Source: an uncultured Monoglobus sp. (GTDB lineage: Bacteria; Bacillota; Clostridia; Monoglobales; Monoglobaceae). Taken from it: a stretch of DNA of 64,000 bases. A model generated the notes under the pieces. It was not told where the DNA came from, made no database searches, and saw nothing but the letters and a program-made list of their open reading frames with translations. The stretch lies in contig CANRGH010000009.1 in NCBI GenBank assembly GCA_947630135.1, forward strand, positions 1,287-65,286, given 5' to 3'. Below are positions 5,856 through 46,732 of this stretch, piece after piece (position 1 is the stretch's first letter; each line of letters opens with the position of its first letter). The position numbers and the translations under genes are program-made.

Positions 5856-8800
5856 TTACAAGCTCACCTCTACATACTCCGCCAGAGGTTCTAATCTATC
5901 AAGATTGTCCCATACAAACACTTTTACATAAGCAGCGTTTTTCAGGTTTAATTTCAATATAATATTATTAGTTTCTCCGGGCAATGTCGTAATATCAGCT
6001 GACTTTATATCGGTAAGTACGTTATCACTCGAATAAGAACCGACAATCAGTTTAGCACCAAATCCTAAAATATTGCTTACGCTTACATTGACATTTTCAT
6101 CTAAGAAAGTTAAATCGTTTATAACATATACCATATTGTCGATGGGTTCAGTCGTAGGCTCTGCAGTCGGTTGGATTGTAGGCGTTTCAGTGGAAGAGGC
6201 ATTCGGACTTGTCGTGGGTTTCGCAGTCGGACTTGCCGCAGGCGTTGCAGTCGGACTTGTCGTGGGCGTTACAGTTGGACTCGCCGTAGGTGTCGCAATT
6301 GGACTTGCCGTGGGCGTCACAGTCGGACTTGCCGTAGGCGTCACAGTCGGACTTGTCGTGGGCATTACAGTTGGACTTGCCGTAGGTATCGCAGTTGGAC
6401 TCGCCGTAGGTGTCGCAATTGGACTTGCCGTGGGCGTCGCGGTCGGAGTTACCAAAGGCGTCACAGTCGGACTTGCTGTTGGTGTAGCCGTAGGAGCTAT
6501 TGTCGGTGTAGCAGTCGGACTTGCTGTGGGCTTTACTATGGGCGTAGCCGTTGGAGCCACTGACGGCGTAGCACTCGGACTTGATGTTGGAGCAGTACTT
6601 GGACTTACCATAGGCGCAGCGCTCGGACTTGTTGTAGGTAAAACCGATGGAAATGCCGAAGGCAAAGTAGAAGGTCCTGTTGTTGGCATTTCTGACGGCT
6701 GCATAGTCGGCTCGACATATGTTTCATCAGGAATCCACTTTGCATATAATACCACGCTTTGAGTTAATGGCTGATTTTCATATGGATAATGATATTCATC
6801 ATCAAAATACCACCCATCAAATATAAATCCATTTTTTTGTGGCATAATTTCACTATTTGCACTTTCGTTTTCTTTTATTGTTTGGCTTTGAACGCCACTG
6901 CCTCCCATAGTGTCAAAATCAACCGTGATATCGGTTCCGATAACCTTTAATTCGAAGGATTTTATCTTATGAGCATCGCCGTTTGATATTGTAGCAGTCA
7001 TAGATACATGCTGCGTTTCATCAGGTCTGCTTACAACGCCATCAGAATTTATAATATTTTCATTATTAGATTCCCATGTAATGATACTTCCATATAACCC
7101 GCCAGATTCCAATTCAATATTAGATCGCACATTATTGGCATTCTCGCCGGCTGAGTAACCAATTTTTGTATTATTGGTATCAAGATCAATTCGGCTTTGA
7201 TTATTATTATATTCCGCCAATGGCTCAAGAGTTTCACCACTATCATCTATGCCGATTATTGTATCTGATGTAATTGTATATATTATTTTTTTGTCATTTT
7301 TATTTTGGTAAGCTAAAGAATAAACATCGCCGTCATGATTTACGATGGTAACAATCGAAGGATGTGTTTGATTGACAGCAACTATTTTGATAGTTTTATC
7401 AAGAGTCGTAACACAAACGGAACTGTTTTCGTTATCGCGTGTTACTGTAAACTCATCATGATCGGACATAACTGCCATACTTGCGAGTGATATGAAATTT
7501 TGCTTATAACCATCGACTGGATTATAATAACCTAATGTACTATTATTTGAATCTTGTATTTCAAATGAGTCATCCTTATGAAATGTATACTGAATTTGAT
7601 AGTTATTTGATTTGTCATCCATTGTCAATTCTTCTGCCCAATATTCTACTACGGATTTACGCAATGAATTTATATCCATTAATTGAATCTGCGCCGTATT
7701 ATTTGAAAGCGACATCAACTCGAGTCTGTCCACGCCGTCCACTAAATTTCCATTTGTATTATACCAATTCTGCATAAGATTATTGGCAAAAGAGCTGCTT
7801 TCATATTCGCCGCTGTTTATTAACATGATCCAATCAATATAATCAACTATATCACCATTGCTATCAACTATTTTATTATAGATATTGGGAGCATTATGTT
7901 TAAAATAATAATTTATCATAAAATACTGTGCGGATTTTACGTTATTAATTGTTTCAAACACTTTTTGTCCCAATTTAAGAAGCTGAACTTCAAAGAGAGT
8001 ATTTGGAGCAAACTGTGCTATAAGACTAGTTGACTTAAAGTCCGAAATGTATGACTTTGTTGCGGAAGCGGCCTCCTGAATAACAGCGACCGATTTATAT
8101 TGATCGCCAAGGTCATTTATGAATGTTTTAAATACTTCACTTGCTACTGTTTTCGCTGACTTGCTTTTCAACTCCTCGTATACATCACTCGGTATACCAG
8201 ATAAAGAACCCAAGCCGCTATCCTTCCAAGCTGCTATTGATTCGGTCATTTGGCTATATAACTCATTTATTCCGCCTTCTTCCAAAATCATTTCAACATC
8301 TGGAATTAATTGTGACTTTGTAACTTTATACACATATTTCCCTGCTGTGTTAACAAGTTTTTGGGAGTAAATATTATAAATCACGGTTGCCATCGGATTC
8401 CGTTCAACACTGCTTATATATTCGGTATACTCCGCCGTTATCTTCTTAATCTTATCGGTTGTTTTATTAAGATCAATCACATCGACATTTTTAAGATATT
8501 CGTCTTCCCATAAGTTAACACTTTTAAGTGTGGAGTTGAGCATAATGATATCGCGCATAATATCATAAGTAGTATACTCATCGGCTGTCAATGCCATAGA
8601 ATTATCCATATATACGGTGGTAGGCATATATTTATTAATAATTTCCTGTGCTTCATAAGGTGTTATAGCAGCATCATAACCAAACTCTTTCGCCCACTCG
8701 TATAATTCCTCGGCGTATTCTGATTTTTTAGTTGATGGTGTGCCGGGGAGAGTTTTATCTTCGATTACATAAAACTTTTTGGGATATGACAATCTTACAT

Positions 8801-10766
8801 GATAAGGGTCATAAGTATCACCGGGATTATTTTCCTCGATGTCTGAATTATTATCGGGACCGTTGCTATTATAATGAATTGTTACATTATCTATAGAATC
8901 TTCATATGTCACCACAATCGAATCCCATTCTTCTTTACTGCCTTCATAATATATATCAGTAAGATTTGAGCATCCTCTGAAAGCGCTGGTATAAATTTCT
9001 CCTACGCCTCTATGTATAATCAAATATTTTAAATCATAACAAGCGCGAAATTCTAAATGTCCCAGACATTTTAGGCTTCCAGGAACTTCTATTGCTGTTA
9101 ATTCTTCACAATGATAAAACGGCCAAATAGACAAATCTGTTACAGTATTAGGAATTGTATATTTACCGGATTTACCTTCTGGGCAACAATATAATACCGT
9201 TTTAGTTTTATTGAATAATACACCATCATCTGATGAATAATATTGGTTATTTTCAGACACATTAATTGTCTCTAAAGAAGTGCAATTCTCAAACACATTA
9301 TATCCGCCATTTATATCATTTACGTTATCGGGAATCGTAATTTGTTGCAGTTTCCTACATTCATTAAACGTCCAAACGTCAATTATTTTTAAACTGTTGG
9401 GTAAAACAATATTTTCCAAAGATGAACAATGATCAAAAGCTTGTCGTTTAATTTCTTCAACTCCTTCGGGAATAATAATATTTTTTATGCTTGTGCAATT
9501 CATAAAAGCAAATTCATTGATTAATTTAATTTTACCAAAAAAGTTAACATTTTCCAACAATTCACACTTTTTGAACATATTGTCGGAAAGGACATCATTA
9601 TATAAATTAACTGTTTTTAAATTTGTACACTCCTCAAAAAGGCTGTATCCAACACTTGTAACGCTTTTTGGTATACTAGCAATTAATAAATTGCGACAAT
9701 ACGAAAAGGCACTATAATCTATATTGACAACATTTTCAGGAAGATCTATATATAATATTCCAGTACTACGAAATGCGTTATTTCCTATATTAATAAGATT
9801 TTGTGGGAAATTGACAATGGTTAATTTTTTGCACTCCTGAAATGCACAATCGCCAATATCTGTAACTCCATTAGGTATATCAATACTTTCTAATTTGTAG
9901 CAATATCTAAATAGACCCGCATTTATTTTAGTAATTTTGCTGGGCAACTTAATACTAATAATATTTTCGCATTTACGAAAGGCATAGCTGTCAATATTTA
10001 TAACACTTTCAGGAATTATTAATGATTTTAAACCTGTGCATTCATCAAATGCACCATATTCTATAGTCTCAACATTTCCGGATATATTAATATTTGTTAA
10101 TTTTGTATCATAGCTAAATGCATACTTTCCTATGACTTTTACACTTTCGGGAATATCAAATGTATCGGAAGTAGATTTTGGACATCCAATTATCTTTGTT
10201 AAATCTTTATTATATAACACATTATTTCGTACAGAAAAACACTCATTATTGGAATCAACTTTTATTTCAATCAAATTATTACAATTGTAAAAGAAATTGC
10301 CGTCTATCGTTTTCACATTTTCCGGAATATATAAATTTGTTAATTTATCACAGTCATAAAATGCACCTGTTTCTATATGCTCTAAGTTATCGGGCAAATC
10401 AACAGTTGTTAAGTTATCACAGTCGTCAAATGCATGACTGCCTATTTTTATTATTGTATCAGCAAAAACTACACTAGTAAGTCTATTACACCAGTTAAAT
10501 GCATTTTTCCCAATGCTCGTTACTCCATCTTCGATTACCACTTTAGAAATACGACTATGATACCAATTAGGCACACCATCTGTATCCGACATTTCGCCTG
10601 TACCACTGATTGTGAGAGTGCCAGTTTCATCTAATGTCCAAGTTAAATTGTCACCATCAATACCGCATGTACCACTTGATACGGCATTTGCATGTGTTGG
10701 CACAAAAATAATTGTGCCTATCAGTATCAACGACAATAACAAACTTATAATCCTTTTCATAAACAT
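5856..10766 (-). CDS. Large secreted BspA/TpLRR leucine-rich-repeat surface protein (LRR1). Order: signal peptide, N-cap, LRR array, unknown central region, atrophied Ig-like domain, InlB B-repeat, PT/S linker, C-terminal FxW domain
   Basis: Repeats of the form IPxxVxxIxxxAFxxCxxL; GSIITWESNN...VSRP; FDTMGGS...GFIFDGWY...LYAKW; RBS AGGAG. Confidence 0.88.
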   Translation of the reverse strand: MFMKRIISLLLSLILIGTIIFVPTHANAVSSGTCGIDGDNLTWTLDETGTLTISGTGEMSDTDGVPNWYHSRISKVVIEDGVTSIGKNAFNWCNRLTSVVFADTIIKIGSHAFDDCDNLTTVDLPDNLEHIETGAFYDCDKLTNLYIPENVKTIDGNFFYNCNNLIEIKVDSNNECFSVRNNVLYNKDLTKIIGCPKSTSDTFDIPESVKVIGKYAFSYDTKLTNINISGNVETIEYGAFDECTGLKSLIIPESVINIDSYAFRKCENIISIKLPSKITKINAGLFRYCYKLESIDIPNGVTDIGDCAFQECKKLTIVNFPQNLINIGNNAFRSTGILYIDLPENVVNIDYSAFSYCRNLLIASIPKSVTSVGYSLFEECTNLKTVNLYNDVLSDNMFKKCELLENVNFFGKIKLINEFAFMNCTSIKNIIIPEGVEEIKRQAFDHCSSLENIVLPNSLKIIDVWTFNECRKLQQITIPDNVNDINGGYNVFENCTSLETINVSENNQYYSSDDGVLFNKTKTVLYCCPEGKSGKYTIPNTVTDLSIWPFYHCEELTAIEVPGSLKCLGHLEFRACYDLKYLIIHRGVGEIYTSAFRGCSNLTDIYYEGSKEEWDSIVVTYEDSIDNVTIHYNSNGPDNNSDIEENNPGDTYDPYHVRLSYPKKFYVIEDKTLPGTPSTKKSEYAEELYEWAKEFGYDAAITPYEAQEIINKYMPTTVYMDNSMALTADEYTTYDIMRDIIMLNSTLKSVNLWEDEYLKNVDVIDLNKTTDKIKKITAEYTEYISSVERNPMATVIYNIYSQKLVNTAGKYVYKVTKSQLIPDVEMILEEGGINELYSQMTESIAAWKDSGLGSLSGIPSDVYEELKSKSAKTVASEVFKTFINDLGDQYKSVAVIQEAASATKSYISDFKSTSLIAQFAPNTLFEVQLLKLGQKVFETINNVKSAQYFMINYYFKHNAPNIYNKIVDSNGDIVDYIDWIMLINSGEYESSSFANNLMQNWYNTNGNLVDGVDRLELMSLSNNTAQIQLMDINSLRKSVVEYWAEELTMDDKSNNYQIQYTFHKDDSFEIQDSNNSTLGYYNPVDGYKQNFISLASMAVMSDHDEFTVTRDNENSSVCVTTLDKTIKIVAVNQTHPSIVTIVNHDGDVYSLAYQNKNDKKIIYTITSDTIIGIDDSGETLEPLAEYNNNQSRIDLDTNNTKIGYSAGENANNVRSNIELESGGLYGSIITWESNNENIINSDGVVSRPDETQHVSMTATISNGDAHKIKSFELKVIGTDITVDFDTMGGSGVQSQTIKENESANSEIMPQKNGFIFDGWYFDDEYHYPYENQPLTQSVVLYAKWIPDETYVEPTMQPSEMPTTGPSTLPSAFPSVLPTTSPSAAPMVSPSTAPTSSPSATPSVAPTATPIVKPTASPTATPTIAPTATPTASPTVTPLVTPTATPTASPIATPTASPTAIPTASPTVMPTTSPTVTPTASPTVTPTASPIATPTASPTVTPTTSPTATPAASPTAKPTTSPNASSTETPTIQPTAEPTTEPIDNMVYVINDLTFLDENVNVSVSNILGFGAKLIVGSYSSDNVLTDIKSADITTLPGETNNIILKLNLKNAAYVKVFVWDNLDRLEPLAEYVEVSL
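6202..6640 (-). repeat. About 18 degenerate 24-bp tandem repeats encoding (PTASPTAT)-like 8-aa units
   Basis: Recurring GTCGGACTTGCCGTGGGCGTCACA-like unit on the + strand. Confidence 0.9.
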
Positions 10767-14699: not shown

Positions 14700-16187
14700 T
14701 CAATCATCGACCGTGATCAATCCCCTTGACATCTTCGCGTCGAGTATCCTCATCACGCAGCCGTCGATCTGCTCGACCGGGATACGGCCGTCTGCCACGG
14801 CTGTTCCGATCGCGTAATGCGCCTCATTTATGTCGGACGGCATAAGCAGGATGTCAACGCCCGCCTGAACGGCCGAAACGCAGGCGTCGGTCGTGGTGTA
14901 TATTTTGCTTATCGCGCCCATGTTGAGCGCGTCAGTCATAATGACTCCGCTGAAGCCGACGTCGTTCCTCAAAAGCCCGATCATCATGGACGACAGCGAC
15001 GCGGGCAGATCAGAGCCCGTAACCTTCGGCGCGGAAATGTGGCCGACCATGGCGAAATCGGCGTCCGCCTCGGCGCCCGCGCGAAACGGCAGGAACTCCG
15101 TTCCCGAAAAGTCCTCAAGCGTCCTGTTTGTCATGACAAATCCGTCATGAGTGTCGCCGCTCGCCGAGCCCATGCCCGGAAAATGCTTTATGCACGCGCT
15201 TACGCCCGCGGCCTGCATGGCCGCAATCTCGCTTGAAACCATCGACGCGACAATGTTCGCGTCAGAGCCGAACGAGCGGCTGCCAAGCGCGGAAGAGCTT
15301 ATAACGTTCACGTCCGCGACCGGCGCGAAATCGAGGTTCACGCCGTATTCTTTAAGGTTTGAGCCGAGAGTTGTTCCGACCTCGGCGGCCTTTTGCGGAT
15401 CGCCCGTGCTTCCGATGTCTCTCATGGGAGGCATCTCGGGGAAGCCTATGCCGGCCTTGCCCAGCCTCGCGACGGTGCCGCCCTCCTCGTCAATTCCGAT
15501 AAGAAGCGGGGTCTTTGAGTAGCTCTGCGTGTTTGAGATCATCTGCTTGAATTGATCCGCGCTCTCGATATTCTGCGCGAAATATATAAGTCCGCCGACC
15601 GGATACGCGGCGAGCGCATTCTGTGTCGTCTCGCCGGCCGACACAACCGTGTCGACCCCGGTAATGCTCTCGGGCGTCACGATCATCATCTGATATATCT
15701 TCTCGTCAAGCGTCATGCCCGCGACTCTGTTTTTCAGGCTGTCAAGACGGGCATGAGCGCCGATGTAGGCCGATTTTGTGGGATCATCCCACTCGACATC
15801 ATATCCGAACGCCTCCGAAACCGCACGAAGAGGTATAAGCGTCCTGCTGTGCTGCGCGTCGATCATCGGCGCCGCGTCAAGCGGAACGCTTTTGCTTCCG
15901 ACGTACATGGTGCTGCTGCCGATCGTGAGGCTCACGGTCGTGCCGTCCTTGGCGCCGATAGCCGTCCTCGTGCCCGAGTCCCAGCTGACCTCCGCTCCAA
16001 GCGCCTCAAAAATCGCCCGCATGGGGACAAGAACTCTGCCCCCAAGAATAACAGGATCGGCGTCAAATGAAAGCTCGCCGTCGTTCACATAGACCGTAAC
16101 AATGTTGTTGTCCGCCGCGTATGCCGCGCCCGAAAACACGGTAAGCGCGATACACGCCGAAATAATCGCAGCAAAAAATTTTTTCAT
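14700..16187 (-). CDS. Secreted GH3 beta-N-acetylhexosaminidase (NagZ-like) with an N-terminal copper-amine-oxidase-N cell-surface domain
   Basis: Signal peptide; GRVLVPMRAIFEALGA; IGIDEEGG, KHFPGMG...DTH, MTDAL nucleophile. Confidence 0.87.
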   Translation of the reverse strand: MKKFFAAIISACIALTVFSGAAYAADNNIVTVYVNDGELSFDADPVILGGRVLVPMRAIFEALGAEVSWDSGTRTAIGAKDGTTVSLTIGSSTMYVGSKSVPLDAAPMIDAQHSRTLIPLRAVSEAFGYDVEWDDPTKSAYIGAHARLDSLKNRVAGMTLDEKIYQMMIVTPESITGVDTVVSAGETTQNALAAYPVGGLIYFAQNIESADQFKQMISNTQSYSKTPLLIGIDEEGGTVARLGKAGIGFPEMPPMRDIGSTGDPQKAAEVGTTLGSNLKEYGVNLDFAPVADVNVISSSALGSRSFGSDANIVASMVSSEIAAMQAAGVSACIKHFPGMGSASGDTHDGFVMTNRTLEDFSGTEFLPFRAGAEADADFAMVGHISAPKVTGSDLPASLSSMMIGLLRNDVGFSGVIMTDALNMGAISKIYTTTDACVSAVQAGVDILLMPSDINEAHYAIGTAVADGRIPVEQIDGCVMRILDAKMSRGLITVDD

Positions 16188-28648: not shown

Positions 28649-31096
28649 CTACTGCCACTCGCTTCCGTTCATTGTGTTGAATGTGAAAGCCGGAAGGCCG
28701 GTGTCGTCGGTCAGGTTTGGCATCTCGGGATAGGCTCCCCAGGCGTACATGACATTTTTCGGCGCCGCGACCTCGTCGCTGTAGACTACGACCTTGTCAT
28801 TTTCGATCTCGGCCCTTGCCGGGTAAAACCTGCCGTCCTCCCCGGCTATATAAAACTCGTGAAGCTCGTTTGTGTCCGTCATGGAATTTGATATTTTCTC
28901 ATCACACTCGCTGTCGGCGTAGCTCTCCTTGTCCATGACTCTAAGCGAGCCGGTGTGCTCAAACGTGAGCTCAATACAGTCGTCATAAACAGCCATACTT
29001 TTGTATGAAGGGCCGCCCACATAACATTTTTCATCACCGTATATGTCATGGCCCGTTATGTCAAGAAATCTCTCGGCCACAAGCTTTTTCTGCCACGGGT
29101 GTATGTCGGTCCGTGCGCAGCCCGAGCCCTGATCGTATGTTCCGATTATGTCGAGCAGACTGAACATGCCAATGTTCGCGGAGCTATTGACTTTCTGAAG
29201 GGCGATCCTCTGGCCCTCGCGTATCTCGCTCTCGTCCTTCACGCCGTACCGCGCGAGCTGAACATAGTAAAACGGCAGCGTCGGGTCGTTCCACTTTTCT
29301 CTGTATGAGTTGATAAGCCCCGCCATGGCGTCGGCATAATCGCCCGCGCTCATGTTCGTCCTGTATTGATCGGCCTCGCCCTGGTACCAGAGGACGCCTT
29401 TTATTTTCTGTTTCGTGAAAGGATATATCCTGTTATTGTATAGCCGGCCGTCCGTGCCGGTGAACGAGCCGAATTTCTCACCGCGCGGGTACCATTTGTT
29501 GATCTCGGTGTCGCCGACAGCCACGCTGACTATGCCCACGTTCCTGCCGTAGCGCTCATACATTCCCCGGGCAAAGTAATACGCGATCGCCGAAAGATAG
29601 CTCGCTCTGTCGGTCGTGAGCTCCGACCAGTAGCCGTTCCAGTCGTTGAGCGGCACATCGTCGATCTCGCCCGCGGCCCCCATGAGGCCTATGTTGTAGA
29701 GATTGAGCATGCGGATATCGGAGCAGGTCGAGTCGCTCTTTCCCTGTGCGGTTTTGAGGTACTCCTCGCCCTCCTTCTCGCCGCACAGGTAAAACTCCAT
29801 GTTCGACTGACCCGCGAAAACCCAGATATCGCCGAAAGTGATATTTTTATACTCAAGCTCCTCGTCGCCGCAGAAAATTCGCAGATCATAATGTCCGCCG
29901 TTCGGGAACGCGCCGAAATTCGCCTCCCAGTCGGAAACGCCCGAGGCGATACCCGAGGCGGCGTATATCTCGCCGCTGTCAAGGTCCTCGATCTCGGCCT
30001 CGACTACCGAGCCGCAGGGCGCCTTGCCCGATATGATCAGATCGGTGTCCGCCTGGAACATCATGTTATCGCTGTAGATATTCGCCATTTTAAGGTTTGA
30101 CGAAGCCTCGGTGTATCTATATTCAAGAGGCGACGGGAGAACCGAGCGCATGCCGCGCAGATCATACACGTCGACCATAATGTAATCGCCGAGCTCTATA
30201 TCAAGATTATTAAACTTGAGCGCCGCATATTCGCCCGGAACGAAATGAAAATCGCCCACTTCGATCCTGCGCATAACTTTGTCGCGGCTATAAACCGACA
30301 TGGCGACTCTGCCGTCAAATTCCTCAGCCGCGTCAAACGCGGTCAGCTCTATATCGGTATTGTTCAGTTTTTCCTTGCCGTCCTTGTCGGTGTTTATAAT
30401 TCCGTCGTCGCACATCCACTCGACCTCGCCCAATGACGCGTCGGGCGCGAACTCAACTCTGAAATATCTGTACATGCCGTAGCCGCTGAAAAGCACCGTG
30501 TGCCAGTCGGGGGTTATGTCGCCGTTCGCGTCGGGCATGACCTCGCCCAGCTCAACAAAAATATTATTATCCTTGGACGCAAGAAATTTTGTGCCGACGC
30601 AGCTGTCCGCCGCTTCCTGCGACGAGACGTCGGGAATGTATCTTATATATGACAAAGCCTTCAGCTTTCCCGCGTCAAGCGTGACGCTGCCGCTCGCCGA
30701 GACCGCGCAGCTTGACGGATCGCCGTCGTAAATTTTGCCGGGGCCTCCCTCGGTGTTGTAGGTGCCGCCCGAATTTTTAAGGTTCGCGGGCGTCACCGCG
30801 TCGGGCGCGACGGCCGGAGACTGCGGCGAGTAGAGCTTAAGCAGCGGAACGTCGGTCACGGCTGCCGTTTCGGGCACAGGCTCGCCGTCATTGCGTAACA
30901 AAACGCCGGAAACCACGTCTTTTACACGCGTGGGCGCACCGGGATAAAAGTAAAAAACAGCGCAGACCGACGCGGCGATCAGCAGCAGGACAACCGCCGC
31001 AACCGCTATCGGGAGCCGTTTCTTTTTCTTTTTTATTTTAACGGGCAAATCCTTATTTTTCATACCTGAAACCCCAAATCTTTCATATAAATCCAA
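28649..31096 (-). CDS. Membrane-anchored sialate O-acetylesterase-like (SASA/SGNH) protein with an F5/8-type (CBM32-like) domain
   Basis: KKKKKR plus TM anchor; discoidin-like YRYFRV; WVFAGQSNM, KGVLWYQGE, DIHP; start codon uncertain. Confidence 0.8.
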   Translation of the reverse strand: MDLYERFGVSGMKNKDLPVKIKKKKKRLPIAVAAVVLLLIAASVCAVFYFYPGAPTRVKDVVSGVLLRNDGEPVPETAAVTDVPLLKLYSPQSPAVAPDAVTPANLKNSGGTYNTEGGPGKIYDGDPSSCAVSASGSVTLDAGKLKALSYIRYIPDVSSQEAADSCVGTKFLASKDNNIFVELGEVMPDANGDITPDWHTVLFSGYGMYRYFRVEFAPDASLGEVEWMCDDGIINTDKDGKEKLNNTDIELTAFDAAEEFDGRVAMSVYSRDKVMRRIEVGDFHFVPGEYAALKFNNLDIELGDYIMVDVYDLRGMRSVLPSPLEYRYTEASSNLKMANIYSDNMMFQADTDLIISGKAPCGSVVEAEIEDLDSGEIYAASGIASGVSDWEANFGAFPNGGHYDLRIFCGDEELEYKNITFGDIWVFAGQSNMEFYLCGEKEGEEYLKTAQGKSDSTCSDIRMLNLYNIGLMGAAGEIDDVPLNDWNGYWSELTTDRASYLSAIAYYFARGMYERYGRNVGIVSVAVGDTEINKWYPRGEKFGSFTGTDGRLYNNRIYPFTKQKIKGVLWYQGEADQYRTNMSAGDYADAMAGLINSYREKWNDPTLPFYYVQLARYGVKDESEIREGQRIALQKVNSSANIGMFSLLDIIGTYDQGSGCARTDIHPWQKKLVAERFLDITGHDIYGDEKCYVGGPSYKSMAVYDDCIELTFEHTGSLRVMDKESYADSECDEKISNSMTDTNELHEFYIAGEDGRFYPARAEIENDKVVVYSDEVAAPKNVMYAWGAYPEMPNLTDDTGLPAFTFNTMNGSEWQ

Positions 31097-39751: not shown

Positions 39752-39964
39752 GCTACATGTCTTAAATATTGTGTTTGTGCCATTATTGTGTATATGGTTT
39801 TATTTTCATATTTTCGGAATCCGTTTGCGAAAATGCAGACTCGAACAATTCCGAAAATGTGTAACATAGACACAATAGGTTTTAAGATGTGTAGCAGCAT
39901 AAAGTTCGAGCTGTGTTTTTATATTTTTGCGCAGCCGCGATCTCTTGGCTGCGCTTTTTATTTT
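39752..39964 (+). promoter_or_regulatory. Structured 5' leader ending in an intrinsic terminator (candidate attenuator, riboswitch or sRNA)
   Basis: Nested stems 39752-39766/39881-39895, 39767-39774/39870-39877 and 39810-39820/39848-39858; terminator GCGCAGCC...GGCTGCGC-TTTTTATTTT. Confidence 0.7.
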
Positions 39965-40040
39965 CTGTCAAAAACATGGACGCGGCAAGAACGTTCGAAA
40001 AAATATATTAATAATTATAATATACATGGAGGCAAGACAA

Positions 40041-42848
40041 ATGAATAAAAGGCTCAAAAGTATCGTATTGGCGCTTTTTATACTCTGCACGGCACTGCCC
40101 GACGGAATAAAAGCGTATGCCGCGGAGCAATACGAAACTGCGGAAACATCCCTTGTTGATGAAGCCGCGCTGTCGGACGGCTCGGCGGAGACCGCCGAAG
40201 TGGTCGACGGTATCACCTTGGAATACGACTCAACAAGCACCGAGTACACCAAGCTGGTACATGTGCGCTATAACGCTTCAAAGTTCACAAAAGGAATAAG
40301 CCGCTTTAAGATCATACTGAGGATTTTGGGCGGAAGCGTGGCAAGCGTCGACTATAAGACCGAATTTTCGTCAAGGTTCAGAATAAACGGCTCTTATTCT
40401 GGCGGCATTTACACAATAAGCGGCTCGTCAAGCTCGGCGGAGGTTCCCGGCGACGGCTGCTTGTTCACCGCCGTTCTGAACCTTTCAGACGCGCTGACCG
40501 CGCCGATCGCGATAAGCATCACAGGAGACACATATCTGGGCGATCCGACAACCGCTTATTATCTCAGCAACGGCGGTTTGAGCGACGCGTCAACCGAGAT
40601 ACCGATAATGAGCGGCCAAGCGGGCTGGACGACCGACACATCCGGCACAATAGGAAACGTGGTTTGGGCGTACAGCAAAAACACTCTGACTCTAAGCGGC
40701 GAGGGCAACATGCCCGACTTCACGGCGGGAACCGCTCCGTGGTACAAAAACGGAAAAAACCTCATCAAGCATATCGTGTTCACCGATAACAGCAATATAG
40801 TGTCCGTCGGTGCTTACGCGTTTTACGGCTTGAGCGCGCTTGAGGACGTCACATTCGTTGATAAGATCAACACGGTGGGCCGGAACTCTTTTGAAGGCTG
40901 CTCGTCTCTCAAAGAACTGAACATTCCCACCAACATGCACGCCGGAATTGGCGAGGAGGCATTCAAAGACTGCGTCTCTATAAATGAGATATTTATACCG
41001 AACGGCATGCTCGCCGTCAGCAAAGGCGCGTTTAAGGGCTGCACCGGCCTCAACAAGATAACAATGCCGTTTATCGGCTCGCAGGTCGGAACCTCTAACA
41101 ACACCAACACGTTCGTCTATCTTTTTGACGGTTATGTTCCGATGAGCCTCAAGACGGTCGTTATAACAAATGAGACGGATATTCCCGCGGAGGCCTTCAA
41201 AGGCTGCTCGGGCATAACATCGATCACGATAAATCCCGAGATAAAAACTGTGGGCGTGTCGGCCTTTGACGGCTGCTCGTCGCTCGGCACATTTAATATT
41301 CCCGACGGCGTCTCCGTTATAAACGACAACACATTCAGAAATTGCTCATCTATCCGCTCGATAACCGTGCCCGACACGGTGCGGGCTATCGGAGAAGGCG
41401 CGTTTGACGGCTGCGCTTCGCTCGGCTCGATACATATTCCCGAAAGCGTTACCGAAATAAAGAATTACACATTCCGCGGCTGCGCGTCGCTGACAGAGAT
41501 CAAAATCCCCTCGGGCGTCACCTCGATCGGCGAGGAAACGCTCAAAGGCTGCTCAAGGTTAACGAGCATTGTCATACCTTTCGTCGGCGCGTCATACAGA
41601 CCGGGTCTGAGCGAGATCACGCATGCCGGAGTGTTCGGCTATCTGTTCGGAAAGTCAACGTCGCAGACCGCGACTAGGCAGGGAAACGACAGTTATGAGA
41701 TCCCGACGTCCGTCACAAAGGTTGAGATCACAAACATCGACTCGAGAGCCTACATACCTCCCGGCGCATTCATCAACTGCTCGAATATCGCGGACATCAT
41801 AATCGACGGCGGCGCCACGGTATGCGCCGAGGCCTTCAAAAACTGCCGCAACCTGAAAAATCTGTACATTCCGAAATCTATTGACGAGATCCAGCGCGAT
41901 ATACTTTACGGATGCACGAGCCTCGTGACTCTGACCGTGCCCTTTGTCGGAAACAGCAGAACAGACTTAAATCATGAGACCTCGGTTCTCGGATATTTCT
42001 TCGGTTTTGGCGACAATCGCGAGAACGAGACCGACATAATCCAGTATTACAACGAAAACGACTTCCATTACTATTTTGTGCCGGAGTCTCTGAAGAACGT
42101 TTCGGTGCTCAATAAAACAAACATACCTTACGGAACGTTTATGAACTGCCGCTACCTTGAAAGAGTGTCAATAGTCAGCGGCGCGGTGATAAACGCCCAC
42201 GCGTTTTACAACTGCGTGTCTTTGAAGCAGGTATCGCTGCCTTCAAACCTGACCGAGATCGGATATGAGACATTCGCGGAATGCGCGGCGCTTGAGACGA
42301 TCAATCTCCCCGCGGTAAGGAACCTTAAGTTAGGCGACTACGCGTTCTACAACTGCACGGGTCTTCGGAACATAACTATCCCGCCCAACGTAAAATCGAT
42401 CTCCGAGAGCGCGTTCATCGGCTCGGCGATCGGGGCGGCCGACACCGCCGAAGCTGCTGCAAGCGACGTGCTGACCATTTATTGCGAGAGCGGCTCATAC
42501 GCCGAGGAATACGCCAAAGCAAACGGAATAAAATATGAGATCGCACAAAAGGGCGAACTGAACATTATAAAAACAATGACAAGCGTGAGCCGCCTGTCTG
42601 ACGGCGCGTATCTGTTCGATGTGACCGACTCAAATCTGATGAGCGGAACGGTGTTCGCAGCGCTCTACGACAAAAACGGCGCGCTGATAAGCGCGCAATG
42701 CGCTCCCGCAGAGGCTGCAGCGGACGCGAGATTTATTTTCAGTGCCGAAGATTATCAGAACGCGGCCGAAGCCAAAGCCTTCATCTGGAGCGGAACCGAC
42801 ACTATAACGCCGAAGACCACCGAAGCGGAGATCATCGAGCTTAGATAA
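40041..42848 (+). CDS. Secreted BspA-like LRR surface protein (LRR2) with a cohesin-like N-terminal module and a C-terminal FxW domain
   Basis: Start at 40041 after GGAGG; signal peptide; LRRs with PF(I/V)G insert repeats. Confidence 0.87.
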   Translation: MNKRLKSIVLALFILCTALPDGIKAYAAEQYETAETSLVDEAALSDGSAETAEVVDGITLEYDSTSTEYTKLVHVRYNASKFTKGISRFKIILRILGGSVASVDYKTEFSSRFRINGSYSGGIYTISGSSSSAEVPGDGCLFTAVLNLSDALTAPIAISITGDTYLGDPTTAYYLSNGGLSDASTEIPIMSGQAGWTTDTSGTIGNVVWAYSKNTLTLSGEGNMPDFTAGTAPWYKNGKNLIKHIVFTDNSNIVSVGAYAFYGLSALEDVTFVDKINTVGRNSFEGCSSLKELNIPTNMHAGIGEEAFKDCVSINEIFIPNGMLAVSKGAFKGCTGLNKITMPFIGSQVGTSNNTNTFVYLFDGYVPMSLKTVVITNETDIPAEAFKGCSGITSITINPEIKTVGVSAFDGCSSLGTFNIPDGVSVINDNTFRNCSSIRSITVPDTVRAIGEGAFDGCASLGSIHIPESVTEIKNYTFRGCASLTEIKIPSGVTSIGEETLKGCSRLTSIVIPFVGASYRPGLSEITHAGVFGYLFGKSTSQTATRQGNDSYEIPTSVTKVEITNIDSRAYIPPGAFINCSNIADIIIDGGATVCAEAFKNCRNLKNLYIPKSIDEIQRDILYGCTSLVTLTVPFVGNSRTDLNHETSVLGYFFGFGDNRENETDIIQYYNENDFHYYFVPESLKNVSVLNKTNIPYGTFMNCRYLERVSIVSGAVINAHAFYNCVSLKQVSLPSNLTEIGYETFAECAALETINLPAVRNLKLGDYAFYNCTGLRNITIPPNVKSISESAFIGSAIGAADTAEAAASDVLTIYCESGSYAEEYAKANGIKYEIAQKGELNIIKTMTSVSRLSDGAYLFDVTDSNLMSGTVFAALYDKNGALISAQCAPAEAAADARFIFSAEDYQNAAEAKAFIWSGTDTITPKTTEAEIIELR

Positions 42849-42883
42849 AAACCGAATGGCAAACGCCGGAAAGGGATGAAAAT

Positions 42884-45800
42884 ATGAAAAAAATTAAAAA
42901 CAAAGCATTATGTTTGATTATGGCAATGATTATGACGGCGCTTACGATCCCCGCCGCCGCTATCGCCGCGGAAGATAATGGCCCACAGCAGGAAAATTCC
43001 GTATATGACTCACCCGCATTAACCGACGAGCACTCTGCTGACGAATACGCCGTAGACGAGCACGCCGTAGACGAATACGCCGAGGCGGCCGCAACCAACG
43101 GCGTTTGCGGCGAAAACTTAACATGGTCATACAGCGGCTATACCTTAACCATTAGCGGAACCGGCCCGATGTATGATTTTCAAGATAGTGCTCCTCCATG
43201 GAGCAAATTCAGCGCCCTGTTCCCGGGTGATATAAAAAAAGTTATCATTAGCGACGGTGTGACTTCGATCGGCCATAATGCGTTTGATAACTGCAGTTTG
43301 CTGACAAGCATAACAATACCAAACAGCGTGACTTCGATCGGGAGTCGTGCGTTTCTTGCTTGTGATTCGCTGACAAGCATAACAATACCCGACGGCATGA
43401 CTTCGATCGGTGATGGTGCGTTTTGGGCCTGCAGTTCGCTGAAAAGCATAAACATACCCGACAGCGTAACTTTGATCGGCGAACTGGCGTTTACATATGC
43501 AGCTTTATCCAGAATAAATGTTGCGGATAATAACCCAAATTACACATCAAAAGACGGTGTTCTTTTTACCAAAGATATGTCAACGCTCGTATGTTATCCG
43601 CCGAAAAAAATGACATCCGATTCGTACAACATACCAACCGGCGTGACTTCGATCGGCGATCATGCGTTTATGAAGTGCGATTCGCTGACAAGCATAACAA
43701 TACCCGACAGCATGACTTCGATCGGTTATGAGGCGTTTTATAGGTGCAGTTCGCTGGCAAACATAAATATACCAAGCAGCGTTACTTCAATTAGTAATAG
43801 TGCGTTTTATTGCTGCTATTCGCTGACAAATATAACTATACCAAGCAGCGTGACTTCAATTGGTAATAGTGCATTTCAAAGCTGTATATCATTGAAAAGC
43901 GTTACCATATTTAATTCGGAAGTCTCTTTATTAGGTAACGCTGTATTTAATGATTGTCCTTCGGATATTGTGATCAGAGGCGTCAAAGGCTCAACAGTCG
44001 AGGAATACACATATGCAAACAATATTACATTTAATGCTTTGGGATATATTTCTCTTGAGCTCATAGACAATGACGACAGCGATAGCCTGACGGATTTCCG
44101 CATAGCGGCCGCGCTTAACGGTTTCAGCGCTCCGGACAGCGTGAATATCGCGCTCAGTCTGCCGAAGGGAGCGCAGGTAAATGCGAGTACGCCGACAGCC
44201 GGCGCGGAAGGCCTGCTCACCGTCGAGGACGACGGCAGCGTTTCATATCTTCTCACCTTGCCGGAAACTCCGGTCTCCGACGGCGTTATCGCCGAGTTTG
44301 ATATTAAGCTTGAGAGCATGCTTGTCAAACTGTTTGAAGCGGAGCTGCTTGACGGAACCTATGTTATGTCCGGCGAGGAGACATTAAGCATTTCGGACGG
44401 CTCGCTTATGCCCGCCTCACTGACTCTGCCCGTCGGTCTTGAGAGCGGCACGGGCGGCACAACCGGCGGCTTTAGCTGGGACTTTACCGGCGACACGCTG
44501 TATTTAAACGGAACCGGCGAGCTTCCGGATTATGAGGAAGGCGGCGCGCCTTGGTTCTACGGCGCGAGCCAGATAAAGCACATTGTTTTCATGAACAACG
44601 CGGTGACGGCAATAGGAAAAAACGCGTTTTTCGGCTTGCATAACGTGATCGACGCGAATATGCCCTCCGGGCTGCTGGCCGTCGGCGAAGGCGCGTTCAA
44701 CGGCTGCAAGAGCCTTCAGAGCGTTGACTTTACCGAAAACATGAGCGAGGGCATAGGCGCGAGAGCGTTTAAGAACTGCTCATCATTAACCGAGATATAC
44801 GTTCCCGAACGCGTCAGCGTTATAGGCGAGGGCGCGTTTGAGGGCTGCGCGGGACTCACCGCCATCACTCTTCCATTTGTCGGATCACAAGTGGGAAGCC
44901 TTAACAACACCGACACCTTTAATTACATATTCGGCGGCGCCGCGCCCGAAAATCTCACCACTGTCACGATAACCAACGAGGTGAGCCTGCCGCAAAGCGC
45001 TTTTGAAGGCTGCGGTCATATTAAAGAGATCAATCTGCTGACCGATATGCAGGACATAGGCGAGGCGGCTTTCAAAGACTGTGAATCACTCGAAAAATTC
45101 GATATTGACAACGGAATAACCACGATCAGAGATTACACCTTCCAAAACTGCGCCTCGATCACTTCGATAACCGTGCCCGACACAGTGCAGAATATAGGCG
45201 AGTCGGCGTTTGACGGCTGCAAGAGCCTTCAATCGGTGCATATCCCCGACGGAATAACAATAATCAGAAACAGGACGTTCAAAGACTGCGCCTCGATCAC
45301 GTCGATCGAAATACCCGAAAGCGTTACCGCCATAGGCGAGGAAACACTCAAGGGCTGCATAAGACTTCGGACGATGGTGATCCCGTTTGTCGGCTCGTCA
45401 TATAACCCCGGCATGAGCGGCATCAATTACGAAGGAGTTTTCGGATACTTTTTCGGCAAGTCAACGTCGGAGACCGCGACAAAGCAAGGCAGCGACAGCT
45501 ATGAGATACCGCCGGCCGTGACAAAGGTCGAGGTGCTGAACACGGATCCGTCGTCATACATACCGCCGGGCGCGTTCATCAACTGCTCGGGCATAGCGGA
45601 CATTCTGATAGACGGCGGAGCGAAAGTATACGCGGAAGCCTTCAAAAACTGCCGCAACCTTAAAAATCTGTATATACCCAAGTCGATAGACGAGATAAAA
45701 TCGGACATACTCTACGGATGCACAAGTCTTGAGACGCTGACCGTGCCGTTTACCGGAAGCGACAGAAACGATCTGAACACCGAGACATCGGTTCTGGGCT

Positions 45801-46732
45801 ACTTCTTCGGCTACGGGCCCGAGACAAACGTAACCGACGTTAAGCAGCAGTACAGCAGCAACAGCAATGACACGCACTTCTACTACATACCGCGCTCGCT
45901 GAAGAATGTGTCTGTGCTCAACAAGACAAATATATCCTACGGAACGTTTATGAACTGCCGCTATCTTGAAAGCATATCAATAGTAAGAGGCGCGGTGATA
46001 GACGAAAAGGCGTTTAACAACTGCTCGGCGCTTGTGAACGTGTCGCTGCCTTCGGATCTGACAGAGATCGGCTATGAGGCCTTCGCGGAGTGCGCGAACC
46101 TTAAAACGATAAACCTGCCGTTCACGAACACAAGCCTTGAAATAGGGGACTACGCGTTTTACAACTGCCTTAACCTTGAAGAGATAAGAGTTCCGTCAAA
46201 TGTCACCCGGATCGCGGACAAGGCGTTTATCGGCTCAAATATATTCCGCACGAGAGCCGCGGACGCGGCCGAGGCAGCGGCTGACGCGCCGATATTCTAT
46301 TGCCAGTCGGGCTCATACGCGGAGGAATACGCGATCCAAAACAACATCAATTACGAGACGATAAGCGCAGACGAGCTGAACGTCAAAACAACGTCGACGA
46401 CTGTGAGCGCGCTGTCGGACGGATCGTGCCTGTTTGACATAATAGACACGAGCGGACTCGGAAGAGGCGTGTTATTCGCGGCGCTTTACGACAGCGAGGA
46501 TAATTTGCTGAAGACCGAAACGCGGACTGTAAAGACCAATGACGCGGTTGAAACAAGAATAGAGATGCCGAAGTCGGAATGGTACGACAGCGGAGCCGCA
46601 TACGCAAAGATATTCCTTTGGGACAGCGTTGACGAGATGACACCGCTTTCAACCACGGTCGAGCAGATAGAGATGAGCCAAGTCAGACAAGAATACGAGT
46701 CCATGCCCGTCCCCGAAACTCCCGACATTTGA
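42884..46732 (+). CDS. Secreted BspA-like LRR surface protein (LRR3): an extra N-terminal LRR block plus a paralogue of LRR2
   Basis: Signal peptide; GVCGENLTW cap; IPDSVTSIGxxAFxxC repeats; second cap GGFSWDFTGDTLYLNGTGELPDY. Confidence 0.88.
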   Translation: MKKIKNKALCLIMAMIMTALTIPAAAIAAEDNGPQQENSVYDSPALTDEHSADEYAVDEHAVDEYAEAAATNGVCGENLTWSYSGYTLTISGTGPMYDFQDSAPPWSKFSALFPGDIKKVIISDGVTSIGHNAFDNCSLLTSITIPNSVTSIGSRAFLACDSLTSITIPDGMTSIGDGAFWACSSLKSINIPDSVTLIGELAFTYAALSRINVADNNPNYTSKDGVLFTKDMSTLVCYPPKKMTSDSYNIPTGVTSIGDHAFMKCDSLTSITIPDSMTSIGYEAFYRCSSLANINIPSSVTSISNSAFYCCYSLTNITIPSSVTSIGNSAFQSCISLKSVTIFNSEVSLLGNAVFNDCPSDIVIRGVKGSTVEEYTYANNITFNALGYISLELIDNDDSDSLTDFRIAAALNGFSAPDSVNIALSLPKGAQVNASTPTAGAEGLLTVEDDGSVSYLLTLPETPVSDGVIAEFDIKLESMLVKLFEAELLDGTYVMSGEETLSISDGSLMPASLTLPVGLESGTGGTTGGFSWDFTGDTLYLNGTGELPDYEEGGAPWFYGASQIKHIVFMNNAVTAIGKNAFFGLHNVIDANMPSGLLAVGEGAFNGCKSLQSVDFTENMSEGIGARAFKNCSSLTEIYVPERVSVIGEGAFEGCAGLTAITLPFVGSQVGSLNNTDTFNYIFGGAAPENLTTVTITNEVSLPQSAFEGCGHIKEINLLTDMQDIGEAAFKDCESLEKFDIDNGITTIRDYTFQNCASITSITVPDTVQNIGESAFDGCKSLQSVHIPDGITIIRNRTFKDCASITSIEIPESVTAIGEETLKGCIRLRTMVIPFVGSSYNPGMSGINYEGVFGYFFGKSTSETATKQGSDSYEIPPAVTKVEVLNTDPSSYIPPGAFINCSGIADILIDGGAKVYAEAFKNCRNLKNLYIPKSIDEIKSDILYGCTSLETLTVPFTGSDRNDLNTETSVLGYFFGYGPETNVTDVKQQYSSNSNDTHFYYIPRSLKNVSVLNKTNISYGTFMNCRYLESISIVRGAVIDEKAFNNCSALVNVSLPSDLTEIGYEAFAECANLKTINLPFTNTSLEIGDYAFYNCLNLEEIRVPSNVTRIADKAFIGSNIFRTRAADAAEAAADAPIFYCQSGSYAEEYAIQNNINYETISADELNVKTTSTTVSALSDGSCLFDIIDTSGLGRGVLFAALYDSEDNLLKTETRTVKTNDAVETRIEMPKSEWYDSGAAYAKIFLWDSVDEMTPLSTTVEQIEMSQVRQEYESMPVPETPDI
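43025..43084 (+). repeat. Four 15-bp tandem repeats (DE[HY][SA][AVE])
   Basis: GACGAGCACTCTGCT GACGAATACGCCGTA GACGAGCACGCCGTA GACGAATACGCCGAG. Confidence 0.9.

Follow-up and report, generated by a model that had tools for sequence, protein, structure and literature searches.

A homologous C-terminal domain on three leucine-rich-repeat proteins of an uncultured Monoglobus: a mobile module of gut Clostridia and its possible role in surface retention

Results

Three leucine-rich-repeat proteins of the Monoglobus window

We analyzed a stretch of 64,000 nucleotides from an uncultured Monoglobus sp. (assembly GCA_947630135.1, contig CANRGH010000009.1, positions 1,287 to 65,286 of the forward strand), hereafter called the window. 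Three of its genes encode BspA-type leucine-rich-repeat (LRR) proteins (Pfam LRR_5), which we call LRR1, LRR2, and LRR3, and the element under study is the domain found at their C-termini, hereafter the CTD. The LRR1 gene (5856-10766, minus strand, from ORF (open reading frame) and Pfam data) encodes a protein of 1636 aa comprising, in order, a signal peptide, LRR_5 blocks, an unannotated middle region, aBig_2, Flg_new (the Listeria-Bacteroides repeat), a proline/threonine (PT) linker, and the CTD (Pfam). The CTD of this protein (5859-6140, minus) is 94 aa long, ends at the stop codon, and carries the motifs ..LIVGSYS.. and ..YVKVFVWDNLDRLEPL... The linker (6141-6734, minus), rich in Pro, Thr, Ser, and Ala and matched by the Pfam PT repeat, spans ~200 aa between Flg_new and the CTD. 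Opposite it, two plus-strand ORFs (6073-6762 and 6171-6563) have repetitive translations (GVAVGL... and RRCSRTCRG...) and look like artefacts of repetitive PT-coding DNA rather than genes.

The LRR2 gene (40041-42848, plus strand; 935 aa from MNKRLKS, from ORF and Pfam data) encodes a signal peptide, an unannotated N-terminal region, LRR_5 blocks, and the CTD (Pfam), and its product is found as P0002/P0153 in the public protein collection. Its CTD, at about 42561-42845 (plus), contains ..VFAALYDKNGAL.. and ..AKAFIWSGTDTITPK.. and also ends at the stop codon. The LRR3 gene (42884-46732, plus; 1282 aa) is paralogous to LRR2, with which it forms a tandem, and has an additional LRR block at its N-terminus; an exact look-up gave no record for the 1282-aa product. 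The LRR3 CTD (about 46376-46678, plus; ..LFAALYDSEDNL.. and ..YAKIFLWDSVDEMTPL..) is followed by a 17-aa acidic/proline tail (46679-46729, plus; the SQVRQEYESMPVPETPDI region). Few members of the family described below have such a tail; most stop 0-5 aa past the domain. LRR2 and LRR3 are adjacent and collinear, with 49% identity over about 930 aligned columns. By region, the LRR core is 60-88% identical and the CTD/tail 30-50%, the latter being the least conserved part.

In the region covering both genes (39927-46732, plus), LRR3 carries a short acidic repeat, DEHSADEYAVDEHAVDEYAE, behind its signal peptide, and both proteins have ~150-200 unannotated residues ahead of their common LRR core. 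These residues look cohesin-like by eye; a cohesin profile gave no detection in them.

By sequence reading, the N-termini of LRR1, LRR2, and LRR3 are type I signal peptides, with a K/R-rich start, a hydrophobic core, and the junctions ANA↓V, AYA↓A, and AIA↓A. None of the three has a lipobox cysteine (sequence reading), and Pfam found no SLH (S-layer homology) domain, Gram-positive anchor (Gram_pos_anchor, the LPxTG type), or other wall-binding module on them. The first-pass annotation of the window, which had described the three proteins as exported yet without any of the usual anchors, was correct on this point.

The three C-terminal domains are homologous

The same annotation had reported one ~90-aa domain at the end of all three LRR proteins. 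The CTDs of LRR2 and LRR3 are 40% identical (E 1e-19), which is not independent evidence because the likeness was inherited with the whole paralogous gene. LRR1 and LRR3 have only their last 24 residues in common by BLASTP (E 3e-8; LRR1 residues 1610-1633). The question was decided with a leave-out profile: all public family domains ≥35% identical over ≥50 aa to any window CTD were removed, and a hidden Markov model (HMM) was built from the remaining 102. This HMM scored LRR1 at 80.5 bits, LRR3 at 69.0 bits (envelope 1178-1278 of the ORF), and LRR2 at 63.0 bits (envelope 887-981 of the ORF), with E-values of 1e-19 to 1e-24, and matched no further ORF among the window's 405. Since a leave-out profile scores these three ORFs, and only these, at 63-80 bits, the common domain reflects true homology and not chance. 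LRR1, LRR2, and LRR3 thus end in one homologous domain of ~95 residues.

Candidates for extra internal CTD copies within LRR1 and LRR2 were noise only. A degenerate internal look-alike had also been suggested around DYIMVDVYD in a SASA-family esterase (28649-31096, minus; 815 aa). In this part of the enzyme (about 30067-30382, minus; residues about 240-345), the family HMM gave 0.9 bits, and hhalign reproduced the suggested register at a probability of 0.2%, leaving the look-alike unsupported. The esterase itself has an N-terminal signal-anchor-like hydrophobic segment, and ~400 residues ahead of its SASA domain are without a Pfam match.

The domain belongs to a family placed at the C-terminus of proteins from gut Clostridia

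An exhaustive HMMER search of 1.84 billion protein cluster representatives with a three-sequence profile retrieved 280 representatives at E ≤ 1e-3, 22 of them at E ≤ 1e-10, and the two top matches were the window's own LRR3 and LRR2. With 1-5 members, the clusters are very small, and where records are named at all, the naming is generic: "leucine-rich repeat protein [Oscillospiraceae bacterium]" or [quoted passage not shown]. Membership was defined with a family HMM of 176 domains.

For position counts, the best 150 of the 280 representatives were re-scanned locally, and 149 were counted. The domain ends ≤5 residues from the C-terminus in 112 of the 149. When tandem proteins with a weak second copy bearing the K-F-M-L-W-D...M-K-P-L ending are included, about 132 (89%) have a C-terminal domain. 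Two copies are present in about 30 of these proteins and three in one. Among the non-C-terminal cases, 8 proteins have the domain in their first 60 residues (5 directly behind a signal-peptide-like N-terminus, while the others may be fragments) and 9 have it internally.

We also collected eight reference-genome loci, found with a narrow 7-sequence alignment. At seven of the eight, the ORF stops directly past the domain and several kb of contig lie downstream; because of these kilobases, the terminal position is not an artefact of truncation or of contig ends.

The named hosts are all metagenome-assembled genomes (MAGs) of gut Clostridia, namely Candidatus Ornithomonoglobus (two loci), Monoglobus, Oscillospiraceae, Ructibacterium, and Ruminococcus, in agreement with the lineage specificity proposed at first pass. 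The window DNA itself occurs in rabbit gut metagenome runs.

Two arrangements among the relatives concern LRR2 and LRR3. In proteins of the same type (P0003, P0016, P0025, P0034, and similar), the first CTD copy is similar to those of the window (ELN.KKTSTTV..LSD..YLFDVTD..) but has lost the F-x-W-D...M-x-P-L ending (e.g., ..YALIYILDENGEMV..), and a second copy that follows it ends with K-F-M-L-W-D-x-x-x-x-M-K-P. Each window protein has only one copy, with the W motif kept. In a Candidatus Ornithomonoglobus MAG (locus L002, 2291-5324, plus), two adjacent genes both end in a CTD (70.7 and 17.1 bits). This pair mirrors the LRR2/LRR3 tandem, suggesting that CTD genes are duplicated locally.

The domain is predicted to be an Ig-like sandwich and is absent from domain databases

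AlphaFold2, run on a 41-sequence alignment headed by the LRR1 CTD, gave a confident model (predicted local distance difference test (pLDDT) 95.9, predicted template modeling score (pTM) 0.85) with seven strands, and the fold is predicted to be a seven-strand immunoglobulin (Ig)-like beta-sandwich. This model superseded one made with 3 sequences, which reached a pLDDT of only 69 and for which Foldseek gave generic FN3 matches. Foldseek comparison of the 41-sequence model with the PDB and BFVD, a check proposed at first pass, yielded no neighbour at E ≤ 1e-3 and hence no close one. The best neighbours, all at E > 1e-3, were Ig-like accessory domains of glycoside hydrolases of families GH3 (7pjj, E 2.7e-3) and GH2 (6ed1 and 3bga, template modeling (TM) scores 0.68-0.71), the porphyran-binding carbohydrate-binding module (CBM) 8wae (TM 0.56/0.51, E 3e-3), and archaeal FlaF. 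The top 14 matches had 9-21% identity and root-mean-square deviations of 2.7-6.3 Å. We read these matches of the predicted model as a generic sandwich likeness and assign no family from them. No type IX secretion system (T9SS) CTD was among the listed best 50 of 1361 PDB structure matches.

Two hallmark motifs run through the family. Strand C carries h-h-h-A-h-Y-[DNS]-x-x-[GDN]-x-L, and strand F with the next loop carries K-h-F-h-W-[DNES]-x-h-x-x-[ML]-x-P-[LM], after which a short final strand ends the protein. Invariance or near-invariance is seen at the Tyr of ..A-L-Y-D.. and at the Lys, Trp, and Pro of ..K-V-F-L-W-D-S-L-x-x-M-K-P-L... The domain is acidic, with a median isoelectric point (pI) of 4.4 in the family and of 4.1-4.4 in the window copies.

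The module had been thought to be unrecognised, and this was borne out by the databases. The three window CTDs had no match in Pfam at E ≤ 10 or in NCBIfam at E ≤ 1, and a PDB sequence search with the 3-sequence profile found nothing; with the 41-sequence profile, the sole match was a spurious summed one to a designed Kelch-like repeat protein. A Pfam search with 41 family domains (E ≤ 10) revealed no recurrent family and no CBM match. A Pfam gathering score was passed by a single one of the 41: the second copy of P0037 (residues 213-281) reached 30.4 bits with CARDB (PF07705), above the gathering cut-off of 22.7. The other 40, including the three window CTDs, had no CARDB match at E ≤ 10. The CTD family, itself unannotated, probably derives as a distant branch from the CARDB-like Ig sandwiches, with a link at the superfamily level at most. 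Literature keyword searches found no description of the domain.

The domain is joined to very varied extracellular proteins that rarely carry another anchor

To describe what the CTD is attached to, 93 family proteins and 9 proteins from the genome loci were scanned with Pfam. LRR_5 was found in 35 of the 93. The further passengers include Flg_new, CHB_HEX_C_1/Fn3_assoc, Big_2, the ricin-type lectin RicinB, the C-type lectin Lectin_C, and CBM_4_9; the glycoside hydrolases and lyases GH3 (with CBM6, CBM35, and F5/8C), GH43, GH115, and RGL11; and the peptidoglycan hydrolases M23, CHAP, NlpC/P60, and M15. On several peptidoglycan hydrolases, the CTD is the only candidate targeting module, as in P0038 (signal peptide-CHAP-CTD) and P0065 (signal peptide-M23-PKD-CTD). 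Cohesins form another group: P0028 consists of a signal peptide, a cohesin, and two CTDs, a cohesin also lies directly ahead of the CTD in P0027, P0040, and P0079, and in P0047 it lies ~100 residues upstream.

Upstream of their terminal CTD, P0040, P0047, and P0079 have cohesin-dockerin-cohesin cassettes, and these lineages thus seem to possess scaffoldin-like proteins with a CTD. The CTD is not itself a dockerin: the dockerin profile (PF00404) had no Pfam match on the CTDs, and the dockerins of P0040, P0047, P0079, and P0130 are separate domains outside the CTD copies.

About two-thirds of the complete-looking family N-termini pass a simple signal-peptide heuristic. The check proposed at first pass, that matches of a family HMM be C-terminal and co-occur with signal peptides, was accordingly positive, with about 132 of the 149 proteins C-terminal and very varied extracellular partners. 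Other anchors are few. A lipobox-like motif was seen in 1 of 77 family N-termini, LPXT[GAN] in the last 60 aa in 0 of 150 family proteins, and SLH in 1 of 150, this one being P0101, which has SLH in terminal position and its CTD-like copy inside. The Ruminococcus locus (L008) likewise has a terminal SLH and an internal CTD. The PT/S stalk noticed ahead of the domain is real in LRR1, where Pfam detects the PT repeat, but fails as a general argument, as a P/T/S-rich segment precedes the domain in only 1 of 99 family members and the LRR1-type linker is exceptional.

In gut Clostridia, this mobile module is added, singly or in tandem, at the very C-terminal end of Sec-exported proteins whose extracellular domains are unrelated. 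As its passengers have only extracellularity in common, the module most plausibly provides a generic service.

Two non-terminal profile matches were seen on CTD-bearing proteins, one to CHU_C at residues 60-126 of the L002:3876-5324 (plus) protein of a Clostridia MAG and one to Por_Secre_tail at 217-281 of the metagenome protein P0122. They suggest that T9SS-type sandwiches can act as ordinary internal Ig-like modules.

Genomic context

The window neighbours of the LRR genes are housekeeping genes (PBP1A, UvrA, UvrB, UvrC, MetH, ABC exporters, and a solute symporter), and three CTD-bearing proteins, which we call paralogs, are encoded inside its 64 kb. A co-distributed partner gene, for which a search was proposed at first pass and which was sought here among neighbours, did not emerge: at the eight other loci, no family was present in more than 2 of 61 neighbouring proteins, and no partner was found in the window either. 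On the contigs examined, no T9SS genes were among the neighbours of the CTD loci.

At 14700-16187 (minus), the window encodes a secreted GH3 enzyme with an N-terminal Cu_amine_oxidN1 (copper amine oxidase N-terminal-like) domain. This domain family was seen twice among the neighbours of CTD genes at other loci and may be another surface-association module of these bacteria.

Discussion

A possible surface-retention module

From its architecture, we tentatively propose that the CTD serves as a non-covalent surface-retention module on the producer's own envelope, a plausible reading to which we give a little less than an even chance. The protein would be exported by Sec and its signal peptide cleaved; the domain would then bind an envelope component non-covalently (a wall glycopolymer, peptidoglycan, or a surface protein), and the passengers, whether LRR adhesin-like arrays, lectins, glycoside hydrolases, peptidoglycan hydrolases, or cohesins, would be kept displayed on the cell, a task that SLH, CWB2, GW, or choline-binding modules fulfil in other Firmicutes. 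In LRR1, the 200-aa PT linker might serve as the stalk that joins the LRR head to the bound domain.

Four features favour retention at the surface. The CTD is near-exclusive with SLH, LPXTG, and lipobox; small CHAP and M23 hydrolases have, by our account, no other non-catalytic module; the domain holds the anchoring position behind single cohesins; and its tandem copies, like its occurrence at one or the other end of the mature protein, are reminiscent of binding modules. We also count the three paralogs within 64 kb toward wall or surface retention. Of the first-pass proposal of an attachment or export signal, it is therefore the attachment half that we retain, while the export half, with its likeness to T9SS, is weakened by the tandem, N-terminal, and internal copies, by the missing partner gene, and by the lack of a Por_Secre_tail link.

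Several points weigh against surface retention. The proposed function is deduced from architecture, and the acidic CTD is unlike modules that bind anionic wall polymers electrostatically. Given the nine internal copies and the two SLH-anchored proteins in which the copy is internal, the domain can also be a plain Ig-like spacer. The closest relative by sequence (CARDB) and the fold neighbours (GH2/GH3 Ig-like domains, the porphyran CBM, and FlaF) are generic, and the association with cohesins and glycoside hydrolases would fit a carbohydrate-binding module equally well. Between LRR2 and LRR3, the CTD is the least conserved part (30-50% vs 60-88%). Finally, a phage copy, as would arise from use as an endolysin wall-binding domain, was not found in two IMG/VR scans, which were empty but for one chance motif match and, each using a single peptide or DNA pattern, were of low sensitivity.

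A more specific form of the proposal, which we regard as possible but less likely than not, is that the CTD would be a hitherto unrecognised module for surface display, specific to lineages of uncultured gut Clostridia (Oscillospiraceae and Monoglobus-like) and binding a wall polymer or surface protein peculiar to them.

Alternative explanations

The fusions to enzymes and cohesins could instead mean that the CTD is a substrate-directed carbohydrate-binding module or lectin, which would bring the protein to its substrate, and not to the producer, by binding a glycan of the diet, the host, or a foreign cell wall. We consider this unlikely, although it would account for the frequent joining to glycoside hydrolases, pectin lyase-type domains, lectin domains, and cohesins, for the presence of 8wae among the best fold neighbours, and for the conserved aromatic signature of Y, F, and W; the acidic pI would also be in keeping with it, as acidic pI is common among CBMs. 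However, many carriers already own CBMs or lectins (RicinB, CBM6, CBM35, CBM_4_9, and F5/8C), and a single specificity is hard to rationalise over LRR proteins, peptidoglycan hydrolases, and pectin/xylan enzymes. Moreover, CBMs do not normally keep to the protein end as strictly as the CTD does here (89%), and the fold match to 8wae is weak and generic.

The CTD might also have no specific ligand and be a structural Ig-like end-cap or spacer, a CARDB-like sandwich that contributes to the stability, spacing, or folding of large secreted multidomain proteins and whose conserved motif is its hydrophobic core. The placement of the domain makes this improbable in our view: the extreme terminus in about 89% of the proteins, or a position directly after the signal peptide in most exceptions, is unexpected for a spacer, as are the exclusivity with SLH, LPXTG, and lipobox and the role of sole non-catalytic module on small CHAP/M23 hydrolases and single-cohesin proteins. 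Some observations nevertheless agree with an end-cap, namely the one member above the Pfam CARDB gathering score (30.4 vs 22.7 bits), the non-catalytic Ig-like domains of GH2/GH3 enzymes as best structural neighbours, the occurrence of internal copies, the mostly hydrophobic or aromatic nature of the conserved residues, and the faster divergence of the CTD than of the LRR core between paralogs.

A C-terminal export or sorting signal for a dedicated, perhaps cleaving, machinery, i.e., a monoderm analogue of the T9SS CTD, would suit the strict C-terminal position, the sandwich of T9SS-CTD size, the many unrelated cargoes, the several paralogs per genome region, and the use of a T9SS CTD by BspA-type LRR proteins in Bacteroidota, but it is very improbable given the ordinary Sec signal peptides, the named hosts among Clostridia (Bacillota), in which no outer membrane is expected, the two copies in about 30 proteins and three in one, the 8 proteins with the domain in their first 60 residues and the 9 with an internal one, the lack of a recurrent neighbour gene at the 8 loci or in the window, the lack of a Por_Secre_tail relationship (1 of 41 domains, at E 0.088), and the absence of a T9SS CTD from the listed best 50 of 1361 PDB matches.

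Significance of a possible surface retention by the CTD

In gut Clostridia, no means of cell retention can be recognised for large BspA-type LRR proteins or for many carbohydrate-active enzymes. If the CTD is an anchor, a simple HMM could predict the surface-displayed proteins of poorly cultured Oscillospiraceae and Monoglobus-like bacteria, the domain would be a pointer to an undescribed wall ligand in these lineages, and it could provide a small, well-folded tag for surface display. Were the lineage-specific form true, the CTD would define a "surfaceome" of LRR adhesin-like proteins, polysaccharide-degrading enzymes, autolysins, and cohesin scaffolds, and would represent a new class of non-covalent anchor beside SLH, CWB2, GW, LysM, and choline-binding repeats. 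Even as a mere CARDB-like end-cap, the family merits a database entry, as ~95 C-terminal residues of hundreds of large secreted proteins are unannotated.

Comparison with known systems

By fold, the domains nearest to the CTD are the Ig-like or Fn3-like accessory domains of GH2/GH3 enzymes and small sandwich CBMs such as 8wae, and this likeness is generic only. By sequence, the closest is CARDB, a beta-sandwich of ~100 aa that is likewise found on prokaryotic extracellular proteins and has a similar strand pattern (..v.V.N.g....a.l.v.lYd.nG.l...). The K-x-F-x-W-D...M-x-P-L ending and the strict C-terminal placement, in contrast, belong to the CTD family only. To our knowledge, CARDB has no established function.

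The T9SS CTDs (Por_Secre_tail PF18962/TIGR04183 and CHU_C) are also Ig-like sandwiches of ~80-100 aa at the extreme C-terminus of unrelated secreted proteins, and the BspA-type LRR proteins of Bacteroidota carry them at the very position that the CTD takes here. The present family differs in that its hosts are Clostridia, that tandem, N-terminal, and internal copies occur, and that no machinery genes were seen nearby. The profiles agree with this separation: the window CTDs had no NCBIfam match to Por_Secre_tail/TIGR04183, and 1 of 41 family domains matched in Pfam, at E 0.088.

In architecture, the CTD resembles the SLH, CWB2, GW, and choline-binding modules, the non-covalent wall anchors of Firmicutes. 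They have no sequence relationship to the CTD, their folds differ (a helical SLH trimer, a CWB2 trefoil arrangement, and an SH3-like GW, versus an Ig-like sandwich), and they are basic where the CTD is acidic. Like the CTD, they are terminal modules joined to Sec-exported proteins of many unrelated kinds, such as autolysin-type hydrolases, adhesins, and cohesin scaffolds, and are present in single or tandem copies and with many paralogs per genome, and the CTD family is nearly mutually exclusive with SLH. In anchoring scaffoldins, SLH holds the same position behind the cohesins that the CTD holds in this family.

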